Assembly: GCA_963775685.1 (NCBI GenBank)
Contig: CAVZJV010000014.1
Coordinates: 448,001 to 512,000 of the forward strand
DNA from: Candidatus Bathyarchaeota archaeon
GTDB lineage: Archaea > Thermoproteota > Bathyarchaeia > Bathyarchaeales > Bathycorpusculaceae
Length of the DNA stretch: 64,000 nucleotides
Direction of reading: 5' to 3'
How positions within the stretch are numbered: position 1 is the stretch's first letter; every line of letters starts with the position of its first letter. The translations under genes were made by a program, and so were the position numbers. Of the stretch, positions 7,932-23,705 are shown piece by piece. A model generated the notes under the pieces. It was not told the DNA's origin. It ran no database searches and worked only from the letters and a program-made list of their open reading frames with translations.

Positions 7932-8815
7932 ATGGAGCGGTTTTTGTTGGAACGAAAAGTCGAAAAAATTTTAGAACAAAGACTAACTCTTGAAGGCGCC
8001 GGAGTGAAACTAAGACGCGTTCTTGGCAATGATGATGACTCCACACTTGATCCGTTTCTGCTCCTAGATCATTTTGGCTCAGAAAACCCCAAAGACTACA
8101 TCAAAGGTTTTCCTTGGCATCCACATAGAGGAATGGAAACAGTCACATACATGTGGACAGGCGAAGTTGAACATGGCGACAGCATGGGCAATAAAGGCGT
8201 CATCGAATCTGGAGATGTACAATGGATGACTGCTGGATCAGGCATTATTCATCAAGAAATGCCCCAAAAATACGACGGTTTAATGCAGGGCTTCCAATTA
8301 TGGGTAAACTTACCCGCAAAGAAAAAGATGGTTAACCCCAAATATCGAGGAATAGAAAAAGAACAAATTCCGATGGTCCAGAAAGATGGCATGAAGATTA
8401 AAGTCGTAGCTGGAGAGATCGATGGAACACGGGACCAGTTCGGGAATTAGCAATCGACATTAAATATTTTGATGTAGAGTTAACTTCAGGAAAAACATTC
8501 GAACATGCAACTGCAAAGGATGATACGGTTTTTGCTTACATTGTCGAAGGCTCCGTTGATGCTAAAGGTAAAACAATAACCCAGGGTCAGTGCGCAGTCT
8601 TTGGGAAAGGCGATTTAGTCAAGATAAGTTCAAAAAACGGAGCTCACTTTCTTTATGTGTCAGGTGAATCATTGAATGAGTCTGTGACTTGGAGAGATCC
8701 TATAGTAATGAATACTGAAGAAGAATTAGCTATAGCTTTCGAAGAGCTGGACGCTGGCACTTTTATCAAAACAAAAAGTTCTTTAAACCCTGATCAAAAA
8801 ATCGATGTGATGTAG
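7932..8815 (+). pseudogene. Pirin family protein, frameshifted near 8430
   Basis: DPFLLLDHF, GFPWHPHRGMETVTY, WMTAGSGIIHQE; C-terminal cupin (GPVRELAIDIKYFDV...PIVMNTEEEL) continues in another frame to TAG 8813-8815. Confidence 0.85.
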
Positions 8816-9176: not shown

Positions 9177-10261
9177 TTGTCCCTAAATTAGGTATTGAAG
9201 TAAGTCGGTGATACAGCTTTCTCGTGTCTCCCAATTTTTTGAGCTGCTTCTCTATTGAGCACTAAACACAGAATACTACACAATGCATAGAACGTCACTT
9301 GCGCTAATTCCCTGACCTTATTGTTAGCCATGCTAAACTGCGTCTTTAGGAAACTGTTAACTGCCTCAATCAGCGGTCTCTTATGATACGCCGTCTTATC
9401 CTCTAAAGACCCATAAGTCCTAAACTTCCTATCAACCCGCAACAAACCCTCCACACCCTTACGATGATTAGCAGGATATGGAATAGTTGCCTTCTCAACA
9501 GCACACCTGAGCTTAGAATCGCTATATTGGCTATCCGCTACTACACTTCTAACTTTAGCTTTACAGTGTTTGAGAATTCCCTTGGCCTTTTCAAGTAGAG
9601 CCAGTGAATGTTTCTTTTAGTTTTGGTTTGCAGAGACAAAAACGCTTGACAGCGGCAACATGGTTTTGTGGTCGATGATAGGTGCATTTTGTAGCCCAGT
9701 GCATATGATCGACCCGATCTGCCAACTCTGGCTTGAGCATCTGAGAAGCCGATCTGGTTATCTGTTGGGTGACGTGTGCTCCAAGCCTTGATAAACGAGG
9801 CATCCAACACAACATCAACTTCGCTGCTTTGCTGAGATTTGAGCAGTTTGATTACTTTTTGATCGATTATTCTGTTGAGTTTGTCTTGGCCTACTCGTTT
9901 GCTGAATCGGCTCATTACGCTTCGGGTGTAACCTTTTTGGTTGTCTTTGATTAGGCAGAGCTTTCTAATTCTTAAATCAGTGTTTAGGATGCGTGTCATT
10001 TCTTTTAGACTACGTATCGCTTTCATTCGCATAATTAAGAATGCTCGAAATAGTCCCAGTGGGTTTCTGGGTCGTCTTCCTGGGCCGCTTGTGTGGAAGC
10101 ACTGTTTTATTAGGTTATTCGCAAAGCTTAAGTCTACGTTTTTGAAGAGGGTTTCAAGGGTCTCGTGTTCATCCTGTCTCGCAGGGATCACTTCCTTGTG
10201 TGATTGGTTCTCAATGACACGAGGCCCGTTTCTAGTTATAAGCTTTTCAATTTAGGGACAA
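9177..10261 (-). mobile_element. IS5/IS4-like DDE insertion sequence with frameshifted transposase
   Basis: 13-bp terminal IRs TTGTCCCTAAATT (9177-9189) and AATTTAGGGACAA (10249-10261); ORFs 9541-10191 (DVVLDAS, GYKMHL) and 9188-9454 (Y..R..IE..NS.LK). Confidence 0.75.
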
Positions 10262-13989: not shown

Positions 13990-14077
13990 AGAATTTTTCT
14001 CCAATAATCCAGCCCCAGCTTTACTTCACAATAAACATTAAATAAAACGACTTAATAGATCAATGTAGTGATTGTTT

Positions 14078-14494
14078 TTGTCAAAAAATAAACGCATACC
14101 TAACTCTTCCTTAAAAAAATCAGCGACTGTCCCATCGGAAAAAAAATTGACGCCAGCACAAAAGAAACGTTTACGGATAACTTTGGCGAAAATGCCGACC
14201 ATTGAAAAACTGGATCCTAAAATGTATGCAAAACTGCAATCAACAATACGTGATGCTGTAGCAAAAACTTTACCGGAATATCAGCAATGGGTAAATTCTT
14301 CATTAATAGCAGCCGACGACTGCCCGGTAGAACTCTGTAGTTCATGCGGCAACGACTGCCCGGTAGAACTCTGTAGTTCATGCGGCAACGACTGCCCCAC
14401 GCCAACTAAAAACATTGATGACATTGTCGTAAAAGCTGTCAACGAAGCTATGATGGGAGCAATTCGCCAGGCTATGAAAAAGCAGTTCAAATAA
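14078..14494 (+). CDS. Putative RiPP precursor 1 (leader, Cys-rich repeat core, follower)
   Basis: Core DDCPVELCSSCGNDCPVELCSSCGNDCPTP between helical segments; lies between two radical SAM genes; TTG 14078 aligns with starts of paralogues. Confidence 0.75.
   Translation: MSKNKRIPNSSLKKSATVPSEKKLTPAQKKRLRITLAKMPTIEKLDPKMYAKLQSTIRDAVAKTLPEYQQWVNSSLIAADDCPVELCSSCGNDCPVELCSSCGNDCPTPTKNIDDIVVKAVNEAMMGAIRQAMKKQFK
14316..14397 (+). repeat. Perfect in-frame 36-bp tandem repeat (2 units plus 10 bp)
   Basis: acgactgcccggtagaactctgtagttcatgcggca at 14316-14351 and 14352-14387, partial unit to 14397. Confidence 0.95.
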
Positions 14495-14611: not shown

Positions 14612-16201
14612 TTGCCTGTTTTTCTTTGCATTCCGCCAGTTTCTTCTTTAATTCCATATCCAGCAATTCCATACTTAACAAGCAGCCTGAGAGCAAATAA
14701 CCAAAAGGTAAACATATTTGATCTGAACATAAAGGCTTTCAACCTAACTCTTTTCTATCAGAGAATAGATATTAAACCCAGAGAAATTCTAAGGATAAGT
14801 AACAACACGAAAAAGGCAAAATCGAAAAGAGTTCCTAAGGCAGAGATTTACTCGACCATGCGAGAAAGCCAAACAATTTTTGAAGAAATAATGTTACAAG
14901 AGGCTTATGATAAATTAGGCTATAATGTCTCAGACTTGATGTTCAAAGATATTATCAGCGAAGAATCAAAGCAGGCAACGTTGTCGGATGTCTGGAAAAT
15001 TTGTAATGCTTGGTTTCTAGAAGTTGCCCACGATTCCAAACGGCAAAATATAGTGGGATTTCATGTAATAAGTCGTACTGGTTTGATGTGGAGCATCCTT
15101 CTGGCACGTAAATTAAAGAAAATTCAGCCCAGAATTTTGACAGCTTTGGGCGGTCCAGCATTCCTCTCAGTGCAAGAAGTTCTGTCCGTCAATTCAGAAA
15201 TTGACGTAATAGTTCGAGGGGAGGGCGAGGTCACGATTTCTGAGATAGCTAATTCTTATGACGGTAGTTTGGAATCAATAAAGGGAATCGATGGAATTTC
15301 CTACAGAACTGAAAAAAACGGAATTGTTTCCAATGCTGATCGACAATTGATGAAGTCTCTTGATGCTTTGCCTTTTCCCAATTACGATGATTTACCATTA
15401 CATGAATATCCTCAGAATAAGTTTGGGATGCCTGTAATGCCGGTTGTCGGCTCTAGAGGCTGTATTGGAGACTGTGTTTTTTGTGTTGAAAAACGTTTAT
15501 GGGGAAACACGTATCGGATGCGGTCACCAGAAAACATCGTATCGGAAATCAAGAATATTAAAGAAAAACATGGAACTTCCATCATTCGATTCAATGACAG
15601 CTTGATTAATTGTAATATCAAATCGCTAGAAAAACTCTGCGATTTATTGATTGAAGAGAAGGTTGGAATGCAGTGGTCGAGCAACTCCAGAATTCGTCCT
15701 GAAATGAACAACAAACTGCTTAGGAAAATGCGACAAGCGGGTTGTATGGGCTTGTGGTTTGGCATAGAATCTGGGTCCCAGAGAATTCTGCGCAAAATGA
15801 AAAAAGGGATTGATTTGGAAACTGCTAAAAACGTGCTCCGCGATACTGCAAAAAATGGCATCCGAGTTCAGATATTTATGATAGTAGATTTTCCAGGAGA
15901 AACTCAGAGAGATTTTAACGAGTCTGTTGCTTTCTTAGAGCAAAACCACCAATTTATTGACCAAGTCAGCGTTTCACGTTTTGGAGTCTTGCCTGATTCA
16001 GAAGTTTCTCATAACCCCCAAAAATATGGAATTGAGCTGATCAAAGGAAAAACAGGGGCCACTTACAGTTATTTGTATTCGCCCTTGCCCAATAGCTACC
16101 GATTTGAAAATCTACGTTCGGTTTGGAACCGCTTAAGCATGGAAAAAACATCAGGCTCAAAAAGAAATTATCTTCCAAAAATAATTGTTCCATATTACTA
16201 A
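14612..16201 (+). CDS. Cobalamin-binding radical SAM protein (class B methyltransferase-like)
   Basis: LGGP, GEGE (B12-binding domain); SRGCIGDCVFC; GIESGSQRIL; PGET. Confidence 0.9.
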   Translation: MPVFLCIPPVSSLIPYPAIPYLTSSLRANNQKVNIFDLNIKAFNLTLFYQRIDIKPREILRISNNTKKAKSKRVPKAEIYSTMRESQTIFEEIMLQEAYDKLGYNVSDLMFKDIISEESKQATLSDVWKICNAWFLEVAHDSKRQNIVGFHVISRTGLMWSILLARKLKKIQPRILTALGGPAFLSVQEVLSVNSEIDVIVRGEGEVTISEIANSYDGSLESIKGIDGISYRTEKNGIVSNADRQLMKSLDALPFPNYDDLPLHEYPQNKFGMPVMPVVGSRGCIGDCVFCVEKRLWGNTYRMRSPENIVSEIKNIKEKHGTSIIRFNDSLINCNIKSLEKLCDLLIEEKVGMQWSSNSRIRPEMNNKLLRKMRQAGCMGLWFGIESGSQRILRKMKKGIDLETAKNVLRDTAKNGIRVQIFMIVDFPGETQRDFNESVAFLEQNHQFIDQVSVSRFGVLPDSEVSHNPQKYGIELIKGKTGATYSYLYSPLPNSYRFENLRSVWNRLSMEKTSGSKRNYLPKIIVPYY

Positions 16202-16300
16202 GAGTTTACTTTCACGAAAACGTCTCCTAGCTTAGTCTTAATGTTAATCACCAACCATAATTATTATCTTGAGAGAGCATAAAGAGAGCAGTGATTGTTT

Positions 16301-16695
16301 TTGTCAAAAAATAAATCTGCACCTATCTATTCCACAAAAAACCTGACTCCAGCACAAAAGAAACGTTTAGAGAAAACTTTGGTAAAAATGCCAACTATTG
16401 AAAAACTGGATCCTGCAGTTTATGCAAAGCTGCACTCATCGATACGTGATGCCGTGGCGAAAACTTGCCGAAATATGAGAAGTGGGTAAATTCTTCATTG
16501 GTAGCAGCCGATGATTGCCCCCCGCCAACACCTGTATGTAGTTCTTGTAGCAACGATTGCCCCACGCAGCTTTGTAGTTCATGCGGTAACGAATGCCCAA
16601 CTCCAAATAGAAAACTGGACGATATGGTTGTTAATGCTGTCAACGAAGCTATGATGGGCGCAATTCGTCAAGCTTTGAAAGAGCAGTTCAAATAA
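16301..16695 (+). pseudogene. Putative RiPP precursor 2, split by a 1-nt deletion at ~16465
   Basis: ORFs 16295-16489 and 16465-16695 join into a paralogue of precursor 1; core DDCPPPTPVCSSCSNDCPTQLCSSCGNECPTP. Confidence 0.75.
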
Positions 16696-16878
16696 GAAGC
16701 AGCTTTACGGTCAGAAACCGACCGCCATCAACTGAAAAACAGCTCTCGCCCATTTACACAACAAAGGTGTAGTGGCCACTATTTTTCTTTGCATTCCGCC
16801 AGTTTCTTCTTCAGTTCCATATCCTGCAAAAACCATAAATATTATCTTGGGAGATCATAAATAGAGCAGCGATTATTT

Positions 16879-17982
16879 TTGCCAAAAAATAAACCAGCAA
16901 CCAAACCCCTCTCTAAAAGACCTACAAAAGCCAAAAAACAAAATCAACGCCTAAACGCACCTTCGGAAAAACTTCCATATTTTGAAAAGTTAGATCCAGA
17001 AATTTATGCAAAACTGCAATCAACTGTCCGTGAAGTCATTGAAAAAACGTTGCCCGAGTACAAAGAATGGCTAAATTCCGCATTTGGCGAAAAAATCATA
17101 GGTAACGATTCTTCAAATGGTTCCCTGCAAAACATCGACAAGTTAGTGGTTTCGGCTGTTAACAATTTAATGGCAACTGCATTGGGTAAAGCTTTGAAGG
17201 AATGTGATGAGCAGCAAGGGACTATGGAAAAATGGTTTAAAATGAAATTTTATGATGACGTTTCTGACATTAGACCTGAAAGCAGAGCATATTACAAATA
17301 TTGTGTAGAAAAGTTCGTTACCGAATTTTTTACCGGACAAAAAATATTTGAAAAGAAAATCCTCGATTTTGGTTGTGGACCGGGATACTTTTCCAAGATT
17401 TTAGCCCAACGCGGAGCACTTATAACTGGAATTGACAGAAGTTTATTTCTGATTTCGAAAGCAAATGAACTTAAGCAAAGACTATGGCTTGAAAATGTAG
17501 AGTTTTTGCATGGGGATTTTCTTGATTTTGCAAAAAATATGCCCTCGGAAAAGTTTGACTATATTGTCGCGATAGATACGATTGTGAGTTTTGACTATTG
17601 CAGACAAACGCATAATCATAAGGATTTCACTCAGGCTTTAAGCGAAATTAGAAGAGTTATGAAAGACGAGGGTCGATTTTTTATTATTGAAGCGCATCCG
17701 TTTTTTGGTCAACTTGCGAAAGGCATAACTTCCTCAAGCAAAGGACGCTTTCATGGACGTTTACCTAATTACAAAATAGAGTACAATGCTAAAGACAATC
17801 CGCACCATTGGTTTACCCTTGATGAAATGACCCGTGCTCTTAGCGAGAATGGCTTGGCTATTTGTAGGATTTATGAGCCTGATCCAAGTGTTGAATTGGA
17901 AAAAGAAAACCCTCACTTATACAAATTTTATCTGAAGTATCCACATTTAATTGTGTATGAAATATGCAAAGCGAGAACCTAA
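16879..17982 (+). CDS. Class I SAM-dependent methyltransferase with N-terminal precursor-like scaffold domain
   Basis: ILDFGCGPG, GID.S, FDYIV motifs; first ~110 aa align with precursor leader and follower but lack the Cys core. Confidence 0.85.
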   Translation: MPKNKPATKPLSKRPTKAKKQNQRLNAPSEKLPYFEKLDPEIYAKLQSTVREVIEKTLPEYKEWLNSAFGEKIIGNDSSNGSLQNIDKLVVSAVNNLMATALGKALKECDEQQGTMEKWFKMKFYDDVSDIRPESRAYYKYCVEKFVTEFFTGQKIFEKKILDFGCGPGYFSKILAQRGALITGIDRSLFLISKANELKQRLWLENVEFLHGDFLDFAKNMPSEKFDYIVAIDTIVSFDYCRQTHNHKDFTQALSEIRRVMKDEGRFFIIEAHPFFGQLAKGITSSSKGRFHGRLPNYKIEYNAKDNPHHWFTLDEMTRALSENGLAICRIYEPDPSVELEKENPHLYKFYLKYPHLIVYEICKART

Positions 17983-19111: not shown

Positions 19112-20742
19112 CAGACTGTGTGAAAAGTCTCTTTCTATGCCTAGCTCCATTTACCGTTAAGCTTAAAGCTAGCTTCAGAACAACTGAAAAGCCATGAGTG
19201 AACATGTAAACGGAACCCACAGAGATCAAACAGTCCTTTTTCCCAACACCATCGACCAGTACGTAGACAAAGAAAACCCCGTCAGGTTCATCGACGCCTT
19301 CATCGACAGCCTAAACCTGGAAAAGCTTGGATTCAAACACTCCATTCCAGCGGAAACCGGAAGACCATCTTACAATCCCTCAGATTTACTCAAACTCTAT
19401 CTTTACGGATACCTCAACCAGGTGAGATCATGTCGCAAACTCGAGAAAGAATGCCACCGCAACGTCGAGGTCATGTGGCTCATGAAGAAACTTGCTCCCG
19501 ATTTCAAGACTATTGCTGACTTCAGAAAAAACAATGTGGACTGCATCAAAGGTGTATTCAAAGAATTTGTTTATCTCTGCAGGAACTTGGATCTTTATGG
19601 TGCTCAACTGATAGCGATTGATGGCACCAAATTCAAAGCCGTCAATTCCAAAAGCAATAATCTTAACGAGAAAACGGTCGCTTTGAAGCTCAAACAAACA
19701 GAAGAAAAGATAGCAGAGTACCTAAAAGAAATGGACCAAAACGATACGACCGATTCAGCAGAAGATGAAAATGTCAATGTCGATGAGCCCAACGAGAAAA
19801 TATGCAAACTTGAAGAAGAAAAGCAACGATACGAGCAGATTCAAGATCAAATGAAAGCAACAGGCCAGAAAGAAGTTTCACTTGTTGATCCAGATAGCCG
19901 TTTGATGCGGGTAGACAGTCAAAGGCTTGAAGTCTGCTACAACATTCAGACATCCGTGGATGCGAAGCAGCATTTAATCGTGGATTACGATGTTATCAAT
20001 AATTCAACTGACCATCACCAACTAGCGACGGACGCTAAGGCTGCAAAACAGGTACTTGGCGTTGATCAGCTCGAAGTTTTGAGTGACAAAGGCTTCTACG
20101 TTGCAAATGACCTCATTGAATGTGAAGAAGCTGGGATAACAGTGTTCATGCCGATTCCAGCTTTCAATCCGACTAAGAAGGTGGGTGTTCCAGAGCCTGA
20201 GTTTGGCTCTGAACGGTTTATCTTCAATGATCTGAAAGACGTTTACGTTTGCCCCGTTGGAAAGGAACTGGGATTTTGGAAGGGCAGTTTCAAGAGTAAA
20301 CCTGAAAATGGCAAGCGTTATAGAACAGTTTCTTGTGCTGATTGTAATTCTAGAAGTAGGTGCACTCGTAATAAGCGTGGCAGGATAATGGTGAGATGGG
20401 AGTATCAGGGTGCGGTTGATAGGCTCAGAGCACTGCTGATGAGTTCTGACGGAAAAGAGAAGGTGCGCTTGAGGAGGATTTTGGCAGAGCATCCTTTTGG
20501 AACCATGAAGCGGGCATTCAATCAGGATTATTTGCTCTTGAAGGGTCTTATAAAAGTCAAAGGAGAAGTAGGATTCACGATGCTAGCTTACAACATGAGA
20601 AGAGTCATCAATATTCTGGGAGTTGGTACGCTAATGGGTTTGATGAAGGCGTAAATAGAGAAAATAAGTGAACAATAATCCCAGACAAGAGCTTGAGTGC
20701 CAAATATTCTTAGGCTTTAACTGTAAGTTTTGACACAGTCTG
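19112..20742 (+). mobile_element. IS1182-family insertion sequence, copy 2
   Basis: IRs cagactgtgtgaaaagt (19112) and agttttgacacagtctg (ends 20742); perfect TSD CATT at 19108-19111 and 20743-20746. Confidence 0.92.
19194..20654 (+). CDS. IS1182-family DDE transposase
   Basis: Close paralogue of 5613-7073, intact 486 aa. Confidence 0.92.
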   Translation: MSEHVNGTHRDQTVLFPNTIDQYVDKENPVRFIDAFIDSLNLEKLGFKHSIPAETGRPSYNPSDLLKLYLYGYLNQVRSCRKLEKECHRNVEVMWLMKKLAPDFKTIADFRKNNVDCIKGVFKEFVYLCRNLDLYGAQLIAIDGTKFKAVNSKSNNLNEKTVALKLKQTEEKIAEYLKEMDQNDTTDSAEDENVNVDEPNEKICKLEEEKQRYEQIQDQMKATGQKEVSLVDPDSRLMRVDSQRLEVCYNIQTSVDAKQHLIVDYDVINNSTDHHQLATDAKAAKQVLGVDQLEVLSDKGFYVANDLIECEEAGITVFMPIPAFNPTKKVGVPEPEFGSERFIFNDLKDVYVCPVGKELGFWKGSFKSKPENGKRYRTVSCADCNSRSRCTRNKRGRIMVRWEYQGAVDRLRALLMSSDGKEKVRLRRILAEHPFGTMKRAFNQDYLLLKGLIKVKGEVGFTMLAYNMRRVINILGVGTLMGLMKA

Positions 20743-20851: not shown

Positions 20852-21904
20852 TCAAGACATAGGACCGGAAGTATTCAGGTTCAGATACTTGGAAGCTAAT
20901 CGCCTCATTGTTTCAAAATGCAGACTAATAGCAACCTTGCCTTTATCGGTTATTTGTATGAAGGTGCGGGGTCCTCCTGCCGTTTTGAAGCCTTTACGTA
21001 CGGTTATGTAGCTAGCATCTGATAGAGCATTGACGCTGTAATTCAAAGAGCTTTTTGAAACTTGAACTACCATCAGGAGGTCTGTAAAAGTGATTTGTTC
21101 AACTCCCAAAAGAGCAAGCATAATTCCAACCCTCGTAAAACTGGATAAAACACCTCCTGAAGCAAATTCGGAAAGACTAACATCATCCTGTTTTCTTGAG
21201 GGTAAGGGGTCTGTGCTGAAGCTGTCCTTTGCGCTCAAGACTTGCACGAGCTCTTGTGGAGCTTCAAACGACGATTTGATGCCAGCCAATAGAAACACAA
21301 GAATTAGGGAAACCAAATAGGTCGTTGTATTTATTTCCTGGAAAAAAGAAAGCATCAGCAACGTTGCAGGAAAAACTGCGACCAGCCAATCTTCTATGCG
21401 CCAAGGAAGAACACTGTCCGCGGACTGTTTTGAAAAAACAAGAAAGTAATAGAATAGTACATAACCAACAAATGCAATCAGCACTACGGAGCCAAGAACT
21501 GCACTGCTCGTTACTTCAAATATTGCGGCAGCAACTAAAGGCAAAAGAACAAGAGCAGTTCTTGCACTCTCCAAAAGCCTATTTAATCTGTGCCTATGTT
21601 TTTCCTGTTTTTGTTCAAAAAGATCCATGACAAGCCGCATTTGATAGAAGCGGTTCATTCCTGCCAAACGAGAAAAAAACAAAATCCCCAAAACCAATAG
21701 ACCTACAGAAATTAGTATAGCATACAAGGGCGCGGATAAAGAAACTAAAACGCCCACAAGAATCGGCACCATCGAAAGCAGGGCATAATAAACTCCAATT
21801 CCTCGTCTGGCTCTAAACCTAAATATTGATAGTGCAATATTTTTCGGCTTCTGCTCTTCCTCTTCTAGTAACTTTGCAATGCTATTCCCACTCGCCTTAG
21901 TCAT
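20852..21904 (-). CDS. Membrane-bound transcriptional regulator (multi-TM plus C-terminal winged HTH)
   Basis: About 6 hydrophobic segments, then RVGIMLAL...TFTDL....VSKSSLNYSVNAL...PRTFIQITDKG (ArsR/MarR-like wHTH). Confidence 0.75.
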   Translation of the reverse strand: MTKASGNSIAKLLEEEEQKPKNIALSIFRFRARRGIGVYYALLSMVPILVGVLVSLSAPLYAILISVGLLVLGILFFSRLAGMNRFYQMRLVMDLFEQKQEKHRHRLNRLLESARTALVLLPLVAAAIFEVTSSAVLGSVVLIAFVGYVLFYYFLVFSKQSADSVLPWRIEDWLVAVFPATLLMLSFFQEINTTTYLVSLILVFLLAGIKSSFEAPQELVQVLSAKDSFSTDPLPSRKQDDVSLSEFASGGVLSSFTRVGIMLALLGVEQITFTDLLMVVQVSKSSLNYSVNALSDASYITVRKGFKTAGGPRTFIQITDKGKVAISLHFETMRRLASKYLNLNTSGPMS

Positions 21905-22041: not shown

Positions 22042-22974
22042 TTGCTTAATATGATTGAGACCGAGAACCTTACAAGAAAGTTCGGTGACCACATTGCAGT
22101 CGATAACCTAACTCTTCACGTAAACAAAGGGGAGGTCTTTGGCTTTCTTGGTCCCAACGGAGCAGGAAAAACCACAACCATACGAATGCTTTGCTGCTTA
22201 ATCTCCAAGACCAGCGGCAACGCCAGAGTCGGTGGTTATGAGATTGGTAAGCCAGAAAATTCTCTAATGATTAGAAAGATCATCGGACTTGTCCCTGACA
22301 ATGTGGGTCTCTACGAGTCTCTTACTGCCTACGAGAACCTTGACTATTACGGGAGACTGTACAGGCGAACTAGCGCCCAGCGGAAAGAGAGCAACGCGCA
22401 CTTTCTAAAGTTGCTTGGACTCTGGGAGAAAAGAAACGCGCTGGCGGGGACATTCTCAAAAGGGATGAAACAGAAACTCGCCATAGCACGAGCACTCGTT
22501 CACGACCCCGAAATACTTTTTATGGACGAGCCAACTGCGAACCTGGATCCCGAAGCTGCGAAGGCAGTAAGGGAATTTATTCTTGATTTAAAGAAAGAAA
22601 AGAAGACTATTTTCATCAATACCCACAACCTTGATGAGGCGCAAAGAATCTGCGATAGAATTGGCATCTTGAATACCAGGTTGATGGCAGTAGGTACTCC
22701 TGAAGAACTTGAACGGTCAATCCACGGGAGAAAAACTGTGATTCAACTTAGAATAGTAAGTAAAGCTATCTTGGATTCACTGAAGAGACTGCAGGTTAAA
22801 AACTTAGTCAAGGAAAGCAACAAGCTTACGGTCGATGTCGTGAATCCCGAGGAGGAGAATCCTGACATAGTAAGTGCTATTGCCACTGCCGGAGGACGCA
22901 TCGAAACGGTTACGGTAACCAGCAGTTCGCTAGAAGATGCTTACCTAAAACTAGTGAGGGAGAACACACAATGA
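22042..22974 (+). CDS. ABC-2 type exporter ATP-binding subunit
   Basis: GPNGAGKTT, FSKGMKQK, FMDEP, THNLDEA. Confidence 0.92.
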   Translation: MLNMIETENLTRKFGDHIAVDNLTLHVNKGEVFGFLGPNGAGKTTTIRMLCCLISKTSGNARVGGYEIGKPENSLMIRKIIGLVPDNVGLYESLTAYENLDYYGRLYRRTSAQRKESNAHFLKLLGLWEKRNALAGTFSKGMKQKLAIARALVHDPEILFMDEPTANLDPEAAKAVREFILDLKKEKKTIFINTHNLDEAQRICDRIGILNTRLMAVGTPEELERSIHGRKTVIQLRIVSKAILDSLKRLQVKNLVKESNKLTVDVVNPEEENPDIVSAIATAGGRIETVTVTSSSLEDAYLKLVRENTQ

Positions 22975-23705
22975 CCACCTGGATGCCATGGAATATAGCG
23001 CGCAAAGAAATGAAAGTAATAAGCAGAAAGAAAAGCATCATCGCCTACACCATTATACTTCCCATTCTCCTCTCATTTCTTTTCTCGCTCATCGTCAAGA
23101 ACCAAATAATTACGTCCTCGGGGGTTATCTCGAATTATTCACTGGGTCTTGAATGGCTCACGTACTTCTTTGTTGTTTTGGCAGCTATCTTGCCTAGTTC
23201 GATTGCAGCATATAGTATTGTGGGAGAGAAAGTGGAGAAGACTTTGGAACCGTTACTTGCAACTCCTATATCCGATGATGAGATACTGCTGGGAAAAAGC
23301 ATCGCTGCATTTCTACTTCCTATTCTTTCAATCTGGATAGGCGCTTCAATTTTCATGGCAGCAACGGATTTCCTAACTCATAATGTGTTGTCGTTCTATT
23401 ATTTTCCCAATTGGACTTCGGGGGTCATTTTGTTCTTCCTCGCTCCTCTTGGAGCAATATTAAGTATTGAACTGTCTGTTATTGTGTCGGCGCGCGTTAA
23501 CGATGTTAGAGGAGCGAACCAGATTGGGAGCCTCATGTTTATTCCGTTCATAGTTTTCTTCCTTGCAGGCGTGGAAGGAATAATAACGTTCAGTATCGAT
23601 AACCTGCTGATCTTCTCGGGCATTTTATTGATCGCTGATGTTCTCCTGTTCTTTTTGAGCAAATCAACATTCAGGCGAGAAGAGATACTGACCAAGTGGA
23701 AGTGA
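22971..23705 (+). CDS. ABC-2 type exporter permease
   Basis: SIVGEKVEKTLEPLLATP...ILLGK; about 6 TM; ATGA overlap with the ATPase. Confidence 0.9.
   Translation: MTTWMPWNIARKEMKVISRKKSIIAYTIILPILLSFLFSLIVKNQIITSSGVISNYSLGLEWLTYFFVVLAAILPSSIAAYSIVGEKVEKTLEPLLATPISDDEILLGKSIAAFLLPILSIWIGASIFMAATDFLTHNVLSFYYFPNWTSGVILFFLAPLGAILSIELSVIVSARVNDVRGANQIGSLMFIPFIVFFLAGVEGIITFSIDNLLIFSGILLIADVLLFFLSKSTFRREEILTKWK

Follow-up and report, generated by a model that had tools for sequence, protein, structure and literature searches.

We analysed a 64,000-nucleotide stretch of a Candidatus Bathyarchaeota archaeon genome (assembly GCA_963775685.1, contig CAVZJV010000014.1, positions 448,001 to 512,000), hereafter the window, in which five genes on the forward strand form a cassette encoding a SPASM-type radical S-adenosylmethionine (SAM) enzyme, precursor 1, a B12-binding radical SAM enzyme, precursor 2 and a methyltransferase (Table 1). 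The precursors belong to a family, aligned here from 28 relatives (alignment A3), in which one to four 12-residue Cys repeats with C-x-x-D/Q motifs lie as a core between helices. The cassette precursors are 133-193 amino acids (aa) long and include a follower helix, and the two Cys repeats of precursor 1 are an exact 36-nucleotide (nt) tandem repeat (14316-14387). Precursor 1 had no Pfam match above the cut-off and no NCBIfam family. The first ~110 residues of the methyltransferase are a paralog of these precursors, with the same Lys-rich tail, leader helix and follower helix, and they are joined to a catalytic domain that is intact.

BLASTP paired methyltransferase residues 5-108 with precursor 1 residues 16-137 (52/124 identical, 42%; E = 1e-23), and the 22 gap columns of this alignment fall at the two 12-residue Cys repeats of precursor 1. 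Both the alignment with the leader and follower of the precursors and the replacement of their Cys core by a short Cys-free linker, which a preliminary description had read from the letters of the window, are thereby borne out. The sole Cys before the catalytic part of the window's enzyme is residue 109, past the follower-like helix, and the fused domain contains no 12-residue Cys repeat. The homology to leader and follower was also recovered by a profile built from A3, which found a cluster of fused proteins (P0010) with E = 6.2e-14. No Pfam or NCBIfam family covered residues 1-104. The kinship extends to the DNA, as had been claimed for the upstream sequence and the TTG start: positions 16831-16899 (69 nt) are 87% identical to 16253-16321, a segment upstream of and running into precursor 2, and positions 16868-16919 are 67% identical to 14067-14118 at the start of precursor 1. 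The starts of precursor 1, precursor 2 and the methyltransferase form a single repeat family, and the TTG start and the first residues, with a KNK motif, are common to the methyltransferase and the precursors. To a large extent, the fused domain and the precursors conserve the same positions, among them polar ones where the leader helix begins and a P-E-Y...W stretch near its end. The leader-like helix is near-invariant, though the fused proteins are only 60-70% identical overall.

Table 1. Cassette genes and parts of the methyltransferase, in coordinates of the window
Feature	Coordinates	Strand	Basis or remark
Radical SAM/SPASM-type peptide maturase, 471 aa	12574..13989	+	First cassette gene
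Precursor 1, 140 aa	14072..14494	+	Open reading frame with Lys-rich tail, helix a0, leader helix, two 12-residue Cys repeats, follower helix
B12-binding radical SAM enzyme, 529 aa	14612..16201	+	Pfam Radical_SAM
Precursor 2, frame-shifted	16295..16695	+	Open reading frames of 64 and 76 aa; 1-base shift near 16464
Relic of the first codons (~17) of the B12-binding radical SAM gene	16772..16864	+	30-aa open reading frame beginning like the B12-binding radical SAM protein
Upstream region and start of the methyltransferase gene	16831..16899	+	Paralogous to the upstream region and start of the precursor genes
Methyltransferase, 367 aa	16879..17982	+	TTG start; last cassette gene
Residues 1-31, Lys-rich tail like that of the precursors	16879..16971	+	Alignment; predicted disordered
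Residues 32-70, leader-like helix, best conserved part of the domain	16972..17088	+	Near-invariant across 21 fused proteins
Residues 71-84, Cys-free 14-residue linker replacing the Cys-repeat core	17089..17130	+	Alignment gap
Residues 85-110, follower-like helix running on into the first catalytic-domain helix	17131..17208	+	Alignment
Residues 116-367, class I SAM-dependent methyltransferase domain	17224..17982	+	Pfam, AlphaFold2, Foldseek

The catalytic part belongs to class I, with Pfam matches over residues 159-273 of 78.8 bits to Methyltransf_31 (cut-off 27) and 61.6 bits to Methyltransf_11 (cut-off 21.2). [quoted passage not shown] Foldseek with the whole enzyme gave class I methyltransferases as its top matches (E 1e-13 to 1e-10; CypM, 7wzg, at rank 6); these were generic class I methyltransferases only and gave no clue to the methyl acceptor.

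We found that the fusion is shared by related genomes. A search of 5.8 billion proteins returned 94 clusters, comprising 42 of full-length fusions, the window's own included (358-402 aa, 60-100% identity, 98-100% coverage), 6 of truncated forms that hold the domain, 8 of short gene calls from the same clade, and 38 of unfused methyltransferases that match the catalytic part alone (44-62% identity). A scan of one genome per species gave 23 related loci, all titled Candidatus Bathyarchaeota, and at every one of them a precursor-like piece abuts the catalytic piece on the same strand. The SPASM maturase was present at all 23 loci and a second precursor at 7; the order SPASM maturase, precursor, B12-binding radical SAM enzyme and methyltransferase was observed in 21/23, L013 and L032 being without the B12 gene at that place. 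The fused open reading frame (ORF) is open from the conserved TTG in 16/23 loci and in the window. Frame shifts were seen in the fused gene at 7/23 loci, and L025, L029, L031 and L033 also have shifts in the SPASM or B12 gene, a pattern that long-read assembly errors would produce.

In a sample of the class, the gene was present in 3/401 genomes, all of the window's genus. Within the genus, 21/120 genomes gave a match and 20/120, G000 included, carried the fusion, with two or three copies in some of them; G420 was rejected as a carrier, its match being merely a 35%-identical unrelated methyltransferase. No ortholog without the domain was found in these 120 genomes. When 1.84 billion proteins were searched with the A3 profile, 18 representatives were obtained, the sole long one being the methyltransferase fusion; no other enzyme with the scaffold was found, and the 8 matches in the window's own genome were the precursors and this enzyme only. 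Contigs of relatives from peat and wetland metatranscriptome libraries, 85-99% like the window, cover the domain and bridge its junction with the catalytic part (16920-17308 in X3 record 18, 16980-17232 in X2 record 13); the RNA runs hold only 5-11% of sampled words, and these contigs, in which RNA and carried-over DNA are not told apart, speak for no start site, level or transcription in this strain. The preliminary description had proposed that the fusion be sought in other genomes and would have taken one unique to this assembly as refuting its reading. It is shared instead by other metagenome-assembled genomes (MAGs), as the loci, genus genomes and clusters counted above attest, and appears to be under purifying selection. 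So far, the fusion appears confined to one genus of uncultured peat and wetland archaea.

To describe the origin of the fused domain, we placed 24 fused domains, 28 precursors and 6 representatives in one tree (58 sequences), from which 11 fragments had been omitted beforehand. All 24 fused domains were located on one side of a branch with support 85/90, which was recovered in 88% of bootstrap trees, and the cluster-linked precursors were separate from them with support 95/95. The tree fits a single old fusion. Recent or repeated copying from a neighbouring precursor was rejected, the fused domains forming a group distinct from the cluster-linked precursors. An ancestral precursor gene, bringing along its upstream region and TTG start, would have fused once to a downstream methyltransferase gene in the ancestor of one Bathyarchaeota genus, and the domain would since then have been kept by purifying selection.

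The linker that stands in place of the core varies among the 48 clusters with the domain: 25 have it free of Cys, 18 with one Cys and 5 with two. The two-Cys linkers are a C-x-x-(D/N)-C remnant, followed by P-T in most, and the most diverged fusion (P0047) is almost without a linker. The claim that the fusion carries no core holds for the window, while relatives with one or two linker Cys depart from it. The former core is in decay, and the relatives display stages in between.

Pooled pairwise Nei-Gojobori estimates, which are crude and drawn from non-independent pairs, gave ratios of nonsynonymous to synonymous substitution rates (dN/dS) in 17 intact fused genes of 0.44 for the tail, 0.30 for the leader-like helix, 0.28 for the linker, 0.62 for the follower-like helix, 0.10 for the junction and 0.15 for the catalytic domain, and in 16 true precursor genes of 0.74 for the tail, 0.27 for helix a0, 0.16 for the leader helix, 0.15 for the core and 0.37 for the follower. 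The order of constraint, with the leader helix tighter than the follower, is the same in the fused domain and in the precursors. These ratios point to a fused domain kept under purifying selection, far from neutral.

Unfused orthologs (52-61% identity) were found at 16 metagenome loci, and 13 of them directly follow a SPASM maturase that is 29-37% identical to that of the window; the maturase lies elsewhere in the locus in L039 and L047, and none is present on the short contig L043. At the place of the fused domain, the unfused orthologs (44-62% identity) have an N-terminal extension of ~45 residues that is unrelated to it; an origin of this extension from the orthologs' own precursors was rejected for L041 and L034, which gave no alignment at E <= 100. 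Because the extension is unrelated and occupies the same place, this methyltransferase family seems to offer its N-terminus to add-on modules, as a slot that the Bathyarchaeota clade filled with a precursor copy.

Related gene combinations were observed around the unfused orthologs. L046 (5843-8756), L041 (4368-8258) and L034 (5760-8894) each hold extremely Cys-rich repeat protein genes, a FibroRumin-like SPASM maturase and an unfused methyltransferase ortholog. Their Cys-rich repeat proteins (176-257 aa, with a tandem pair in L041) have a helical C-terminal part and lie upstream of the maturase, and none of the proteins of these three loci reaches a curated cut-off. In cluster P0067 (412 aa), the C-terminal end of a SPASM maturase and an unfused-type methyltransferase share one ORF, which may reflect a truncated contig with read-through or a real enzyme-enzyme fusion.

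None of the cassette proteins of the window reaches a curated NCBIfam cut-off. The SPASM maturase matched Pfam Radical_SAM with 80 bits. Its top NCBIfam model, the FibroRumin maturase, scored below threshold (181.7 bits, cut-off 400), and its scores also place it outside the PapB ranthipeptide maturases (NF047865; 150.4 bits, cut-off 340) and the CrpC-type maturases of Cys-rich proteins (TIGR04463; 91.8 bits, cut-off 525). The nearest solved structure is 5wgg/5why (E 1.8e-26), and the ~100 N-terminal residues that precede the radical SAM domain of the maturase lie where 5wgg/5why has extra N-terminal sequence. In the B12-binding radical SAM enzyme, Pfam B12-binding reached 27.8 bits, under the cut-off of 32.1, and the closest NCBIfam model was a radical SAM C-methyltransferase subfamily for peptides that are ribosomally synthesized and then modified post-translationally (RiPPs), with 160.8 bits (cut-off 281.85).

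Precursor 2 is 80-82% identical to precursor 1 in nucleotide sequence. Its frame shift sits within a short stretch of T; L012, L019, L021, L025 and L029 have an intact gene of 133 aa, and the RNA-library contigs of relatives have one extra base behind 16463-16465. The shift is either a real recent inactivation or a long-read error. Because a copy of the start of the B12-binding radical SAM gene lies between precursor 2 and the methyltransferase gene (16779-16829, 92% identical to 14616-14666), precursor 2 arose when a segment comprising a precursor, the spacer and the beginning of the B12 gene was duplicated.

The window's own genome contains at least five precursor genes of diverged types and a single methyltransferase of this kind. 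Further paralogs of the precursors lie in L002 (1486-1914, -), L004 (1483-1998, +) and L005 (1282-1863, -); they encode 142, 171 and 193 aa with one to three Cys repeats, and none has an adjoining methyltransferase. The paralog in L005 adjoins a second paralog of the SPASM maturase (L005 2057-3226) and a further radical SAM fragment.

The genes that flank the cassette in the window, namely an AlkZ-like gene, ORF136, an HTH_34 membrane protein, an ATP-binding cassette (ABC) ATPase and permease, and acyltransferase-like and desulfoferrodoxin-like genes, were rejected as cassette parts. Because these flanking genes are not conserved across the 23 related loci, the exceptions being fragments of ORF136 in L016 and L030 and a transposase homolog in L015, the unit is four or five genes alone. 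No protease or exporter was conserved beside the cassette at these loci. The HTH_34 protein (20852-21904, -; 350 aa) has several predicted membrane-like hydrophobic stretches and a C-terminal winged-helix, and adjoins the ABC ATPase/permease pair (22042-23705). The cassette is followed, 1.2 kb downstream, by a transposase ORF of 486 aa (19194-20654, +), and another transposase-like ORF, which is shorter (9541-10191, -), lies upstream. The transposase in L015, 75-78% identical, lies 5' of the cassette there. Transposases, together with the patchy distribution and the several copies per genome, suggest that the cassette moves.

Structure predictions were made for the enzyme and for precursor 1. 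The AF2 model of the enzyme (80 sequences, mean pLDDT 77) has a helix at residues 40-69, a loop at 70-81 and a helix at 82-123 that runs into the catalytic domain; residues 3-33 are disordered (pLDDT < 50), and pLDDT is also < 50 at 77-83. In the model of precursor 1 (28 sequences, pLDDT 65, predicted TM-score 0.45), helices were predicted at residues 28-39, 49-79 and 115-138 with pLDDT 67-87, and the core had pLDDT < 50. With moderate confidence, both models agree with the earlier proposal that leader and follower are helical. The lack of a RiPP recognition element (RRE), proposed alongside, is upheld as well: the enzyme has no predicted strand before residue 124, and hence no winged helix-turn-helix with a three-stranded sheet, and its residues 1-104 match no Pfam or NCBIfam family. 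A structure search of the PDB with the precursor model gave 0 matches and hence no fold, and the ESM Atlas gave no usable match to residues 30-115.

As a rule, the enzymes that mature RiPPs and proteins reach their substrates by way of an RRE or a groove that binds the leader. Because this enzyme is without an RRE-like domain, it would need a docking module, and our tentative preference, which falls a little short of being probable, is that the fused domain is such a module and associates with the like helices of the precursor. The helix-loop-helix would hold the catalytic domain on the precursor by way of the precursor's own like helical frame, and docking would bring the modified Cys loop close to the active site. 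The homology, the conservation, the single origin, the selection, the predicted helices and the intact catalytic domain are observations; which partner is bound, in what geometry and which atom is methylated are what we infer. A more specific form of the idea, possible but on balance doubtful, is that the precursors are small helical-hairpin proteins which display a cross-linked Cys loop and self-associate, and that the methyltransferase captured one hairpin to co-assemble with them, like binding like. The presence of at least five diverged precursors and one methyltransferase fits a shared docking frame or leader-independent action.

Co-folding was performed with enzyme residues 30-367 and precursor residues 24-140, using own alignments for the two, for which the calibration counts hold roughly. 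It gave an ipSAE of 0.37 (runs 0.37, 0.45 and 0.32), and the best of 3 controls gave 0.00. The mark for a pass was reached by 58/80 solved complexes and by 2/110 mismatched pairs, and scores <= 0.60 came from 7/80 solved complexes and both of the passing mismatches. At least 39% of contacts were common to the runs, with a partner pLDDT of at least 55. The hetero-oligomer prediction that the preliminary description had called for thus lends weak support to the co-assembly of precursor and enzyme proposed there. The observation behind that proposal is confirmed, the fusion being conserved and apparently selected, and the mechanism itself is plausible and weakly supported.

Several results weigh against docking on the precursor. 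A pass at this co-folding score is more often wrong than right unless the pair is likely beforehand, and no interface was reported. The pLDDT of the N-terminal domain is only 50-73. Helix a0, conserved in the precursors, has been lost from the enzyme, the follower-like helix is only weakly constrained, and relative to dS the fused domain changes at roughly double the pace of the true precursors, on estimates whose crudeness is itself a weakness. In two of the 23 related loci, L027 (~8096-8380) and L028 (~8150-8430), each from a species-level genome, the fused gene loses its frame within the core remnant, with the SPASM and B12 genes beside it apparently intact, and a leader-like ORF of 111-133 aa overlaps a methyltransferase ORF that still starts with a follower-like helix; the link of leader and enzyme may be dispensable in that lineage, the gene may be truly split, or the breaks may be assembly errors. 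Many RiPP methyltransferases need no leader, according to the review PMC11285071. Finally, a partner that is another enzyme and not the precursor would lead one to expect the same conserved residues.

A partner of this last kind would make the domain a leader mimic, still bound by the leader site of the SPASM maturase or of the B12-binding radical SAM enzyme and tethering a multi-enzyme complex on one precursor, which we consider unlikely. Recognition by a common partner predicts the shared, conserved polar surface positions where the leader helix begins, and the ~100-residue N-terminal part of the SPASM maturase may be an RRE by analogy with CrpC and CteB as portrayed in a portion of PMC13692751, where domain-domain contacts beyond the RRE-leader pair are also proposed. 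However, helix a0, which is equally a possible recognition element, is lost in the enzyme, and a leader borne by the enzyme would compete with the leader of the substrate for the site.

It is quite unlikely that the domain is a relic of a fusion that supplied a precursor-type promoter and start codon, with the coding stretch carried along, perhaps aiding solubility, and having no role in recognition. Such a history would account for the precursor-like upstream region and start, the decayed core, the high dN/dS of the follower-like helix (0.62) and the tail (0.44), the two loci with a frame break in the domain and the low to moderate pLDDT of the N-terminal domain. It would not account for a leader-like helix that is near-invariant with a dN/dS of 0.30, since a neutral stretch of ~330 nt would neither stay open in 16/23 diverged loci and the window nor keep the conserved positions of the precursors.

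The fused leader might also act in cis, filling the leader site of its own methyltransferase and making the enzyme active on cores whatever their leader, for example those of the diverged paralogs. Engineered leader-enzyme fusions are constitutively active, as stated in a portion of PMC13003496, the genome pairs its diverged precursor genes with one methyltransferase, and the fused domain groups with none of the cluster-linked precursors. Nevertheless, nothing indicates that this class I methyltransferase depends on a leader, the unfused orthologs have their unrelated extension and no leader copy, and the follower-like helix would be left without a role, all of which make cis activation distinctly improbable. 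The reading of the fusion as a self-substrate, a precursor whose own loop is modified as in a borosin turned round, is very improbable indeed: the C-x-x-(D/N)-C remnant in 5/48 clusters and the one Cys in 18/48 would suit it, but the linker is Cys-free in the window and in 25/48 clusters, and the Cys positions are not conserved. An artefact of assembly or gene calling, such as a duplication joint or a missed stop in one assembly, might be suspected from the frame shifts in the neighbouring precursor 2 and in 7/23 fused genes, but is refuted by the open fused frame in 16 independent loci of other MAGs, by the 42 clusters and by the metatranscriptome-library contigs.

We compared docking by the fused domain, and the fusion that underlies it, with known systems. 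In a literature search, we found no description of the cassette or of a natural core-less precursor-enzyme fusion, although the supplements of PMC13692751 may hold related archaeal clusters, and a search for Bathyarchaeota with RiPP and radical SAM gave no papers. The fusion in the window is a variant of precursor-enzyme fusion not described in the literature found. The borosins resemble it in that a precursor-derived segment and a methyltransferase of the same pathway, as in OphMA, form one polypeptide. OphMA belongs to another fold than the class I Rossmann methyltransferases. In the borosins the precursor part is C-terminal and its core is kept and methylated in trans within a homodimer, whereas the window's enzyme has an N-terminal part with the core lost or decaying, free precursors encoded beside it and matches to class I Rossmann families. 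Residues 1-108 hold no Cys or repeat core peptide, and the enzyme gave generic class I Pfam matches, no borosin-specific model having been searched, with no C-terminal precursor part on an alpha-N-methyltransferase of the OphMA family. For borosins of types I-III, the review PMC11285071 describes a precursor fused to the methyltransferase with its core kept.

Engineered leader-enzyme fusions likewise place a core-less leader covalently on a tailoring enzyme; those in PMC13003496 are laboratory constructs, whereas the fusion in the window is natural, conserved and inclusive of the follower helix. The Crp system of Methanococcus voltae (CrpA/CrpB/CrpC), as set out in excerpts of PMC13692751, is the closest published system that we found, and is also an archaeal SPASM radical SAM cassette with long Cys-repeat proteins bearing C-x-x-Q/D motifs. 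According to the same excerpts, CrpA and CrpB share an N-terminal domain and differ after it, and substrate engagement with the SPASM enzyme from domain to domain has been proposed. They report no methyltransferase fusion, and CrpC is a member of TIGR04463, for which the maturase of the window falls far below the cut-off. Among curated models and solved structures, the ranthipeptide and SCIFF maturases (PapB, CteB) stand nearest to the SPASM enzyme of the cassette, with C-x-x-D/Q core motifs in common, but the cassette scores below the curated cut-offs and its precursors measure 133-193 aa and have a follower helix. Leader recognition through an RRE answers the same need, that of bringing a tailoring enzyme to the precursor; the N-terminal domain of the window's enzyme, in contrast, is predicted to be all-helical, and its homology is to the substrate and not to a PqqD-like fold.

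The finding marks an uncharacterised cassette of uncultured peat and wetland Bathyarchaeota and points to wider uncurated systems in environmental contigs that combine a Cys-repeat protein, a SPASM radical SAM enzyme and a class I methyltransferase. Fusing a leader to an enzyme is known as an engineering trick; here, a precursor frame has been fused naturally, has lost its core and appears to have been kept by selection, and the fusion would show that nature uses the leader-fusion trick or an association of scaffold with scaffold. The domain would offer a compact, testable module of ~80 residues that directs enzymes to peptide substrates. If true, co-assembly of like with like would be a form of substrate recognition that needs neither an RRE nor a linear leader motif, and would provide a natural precedent for enzyme-borne leaders.

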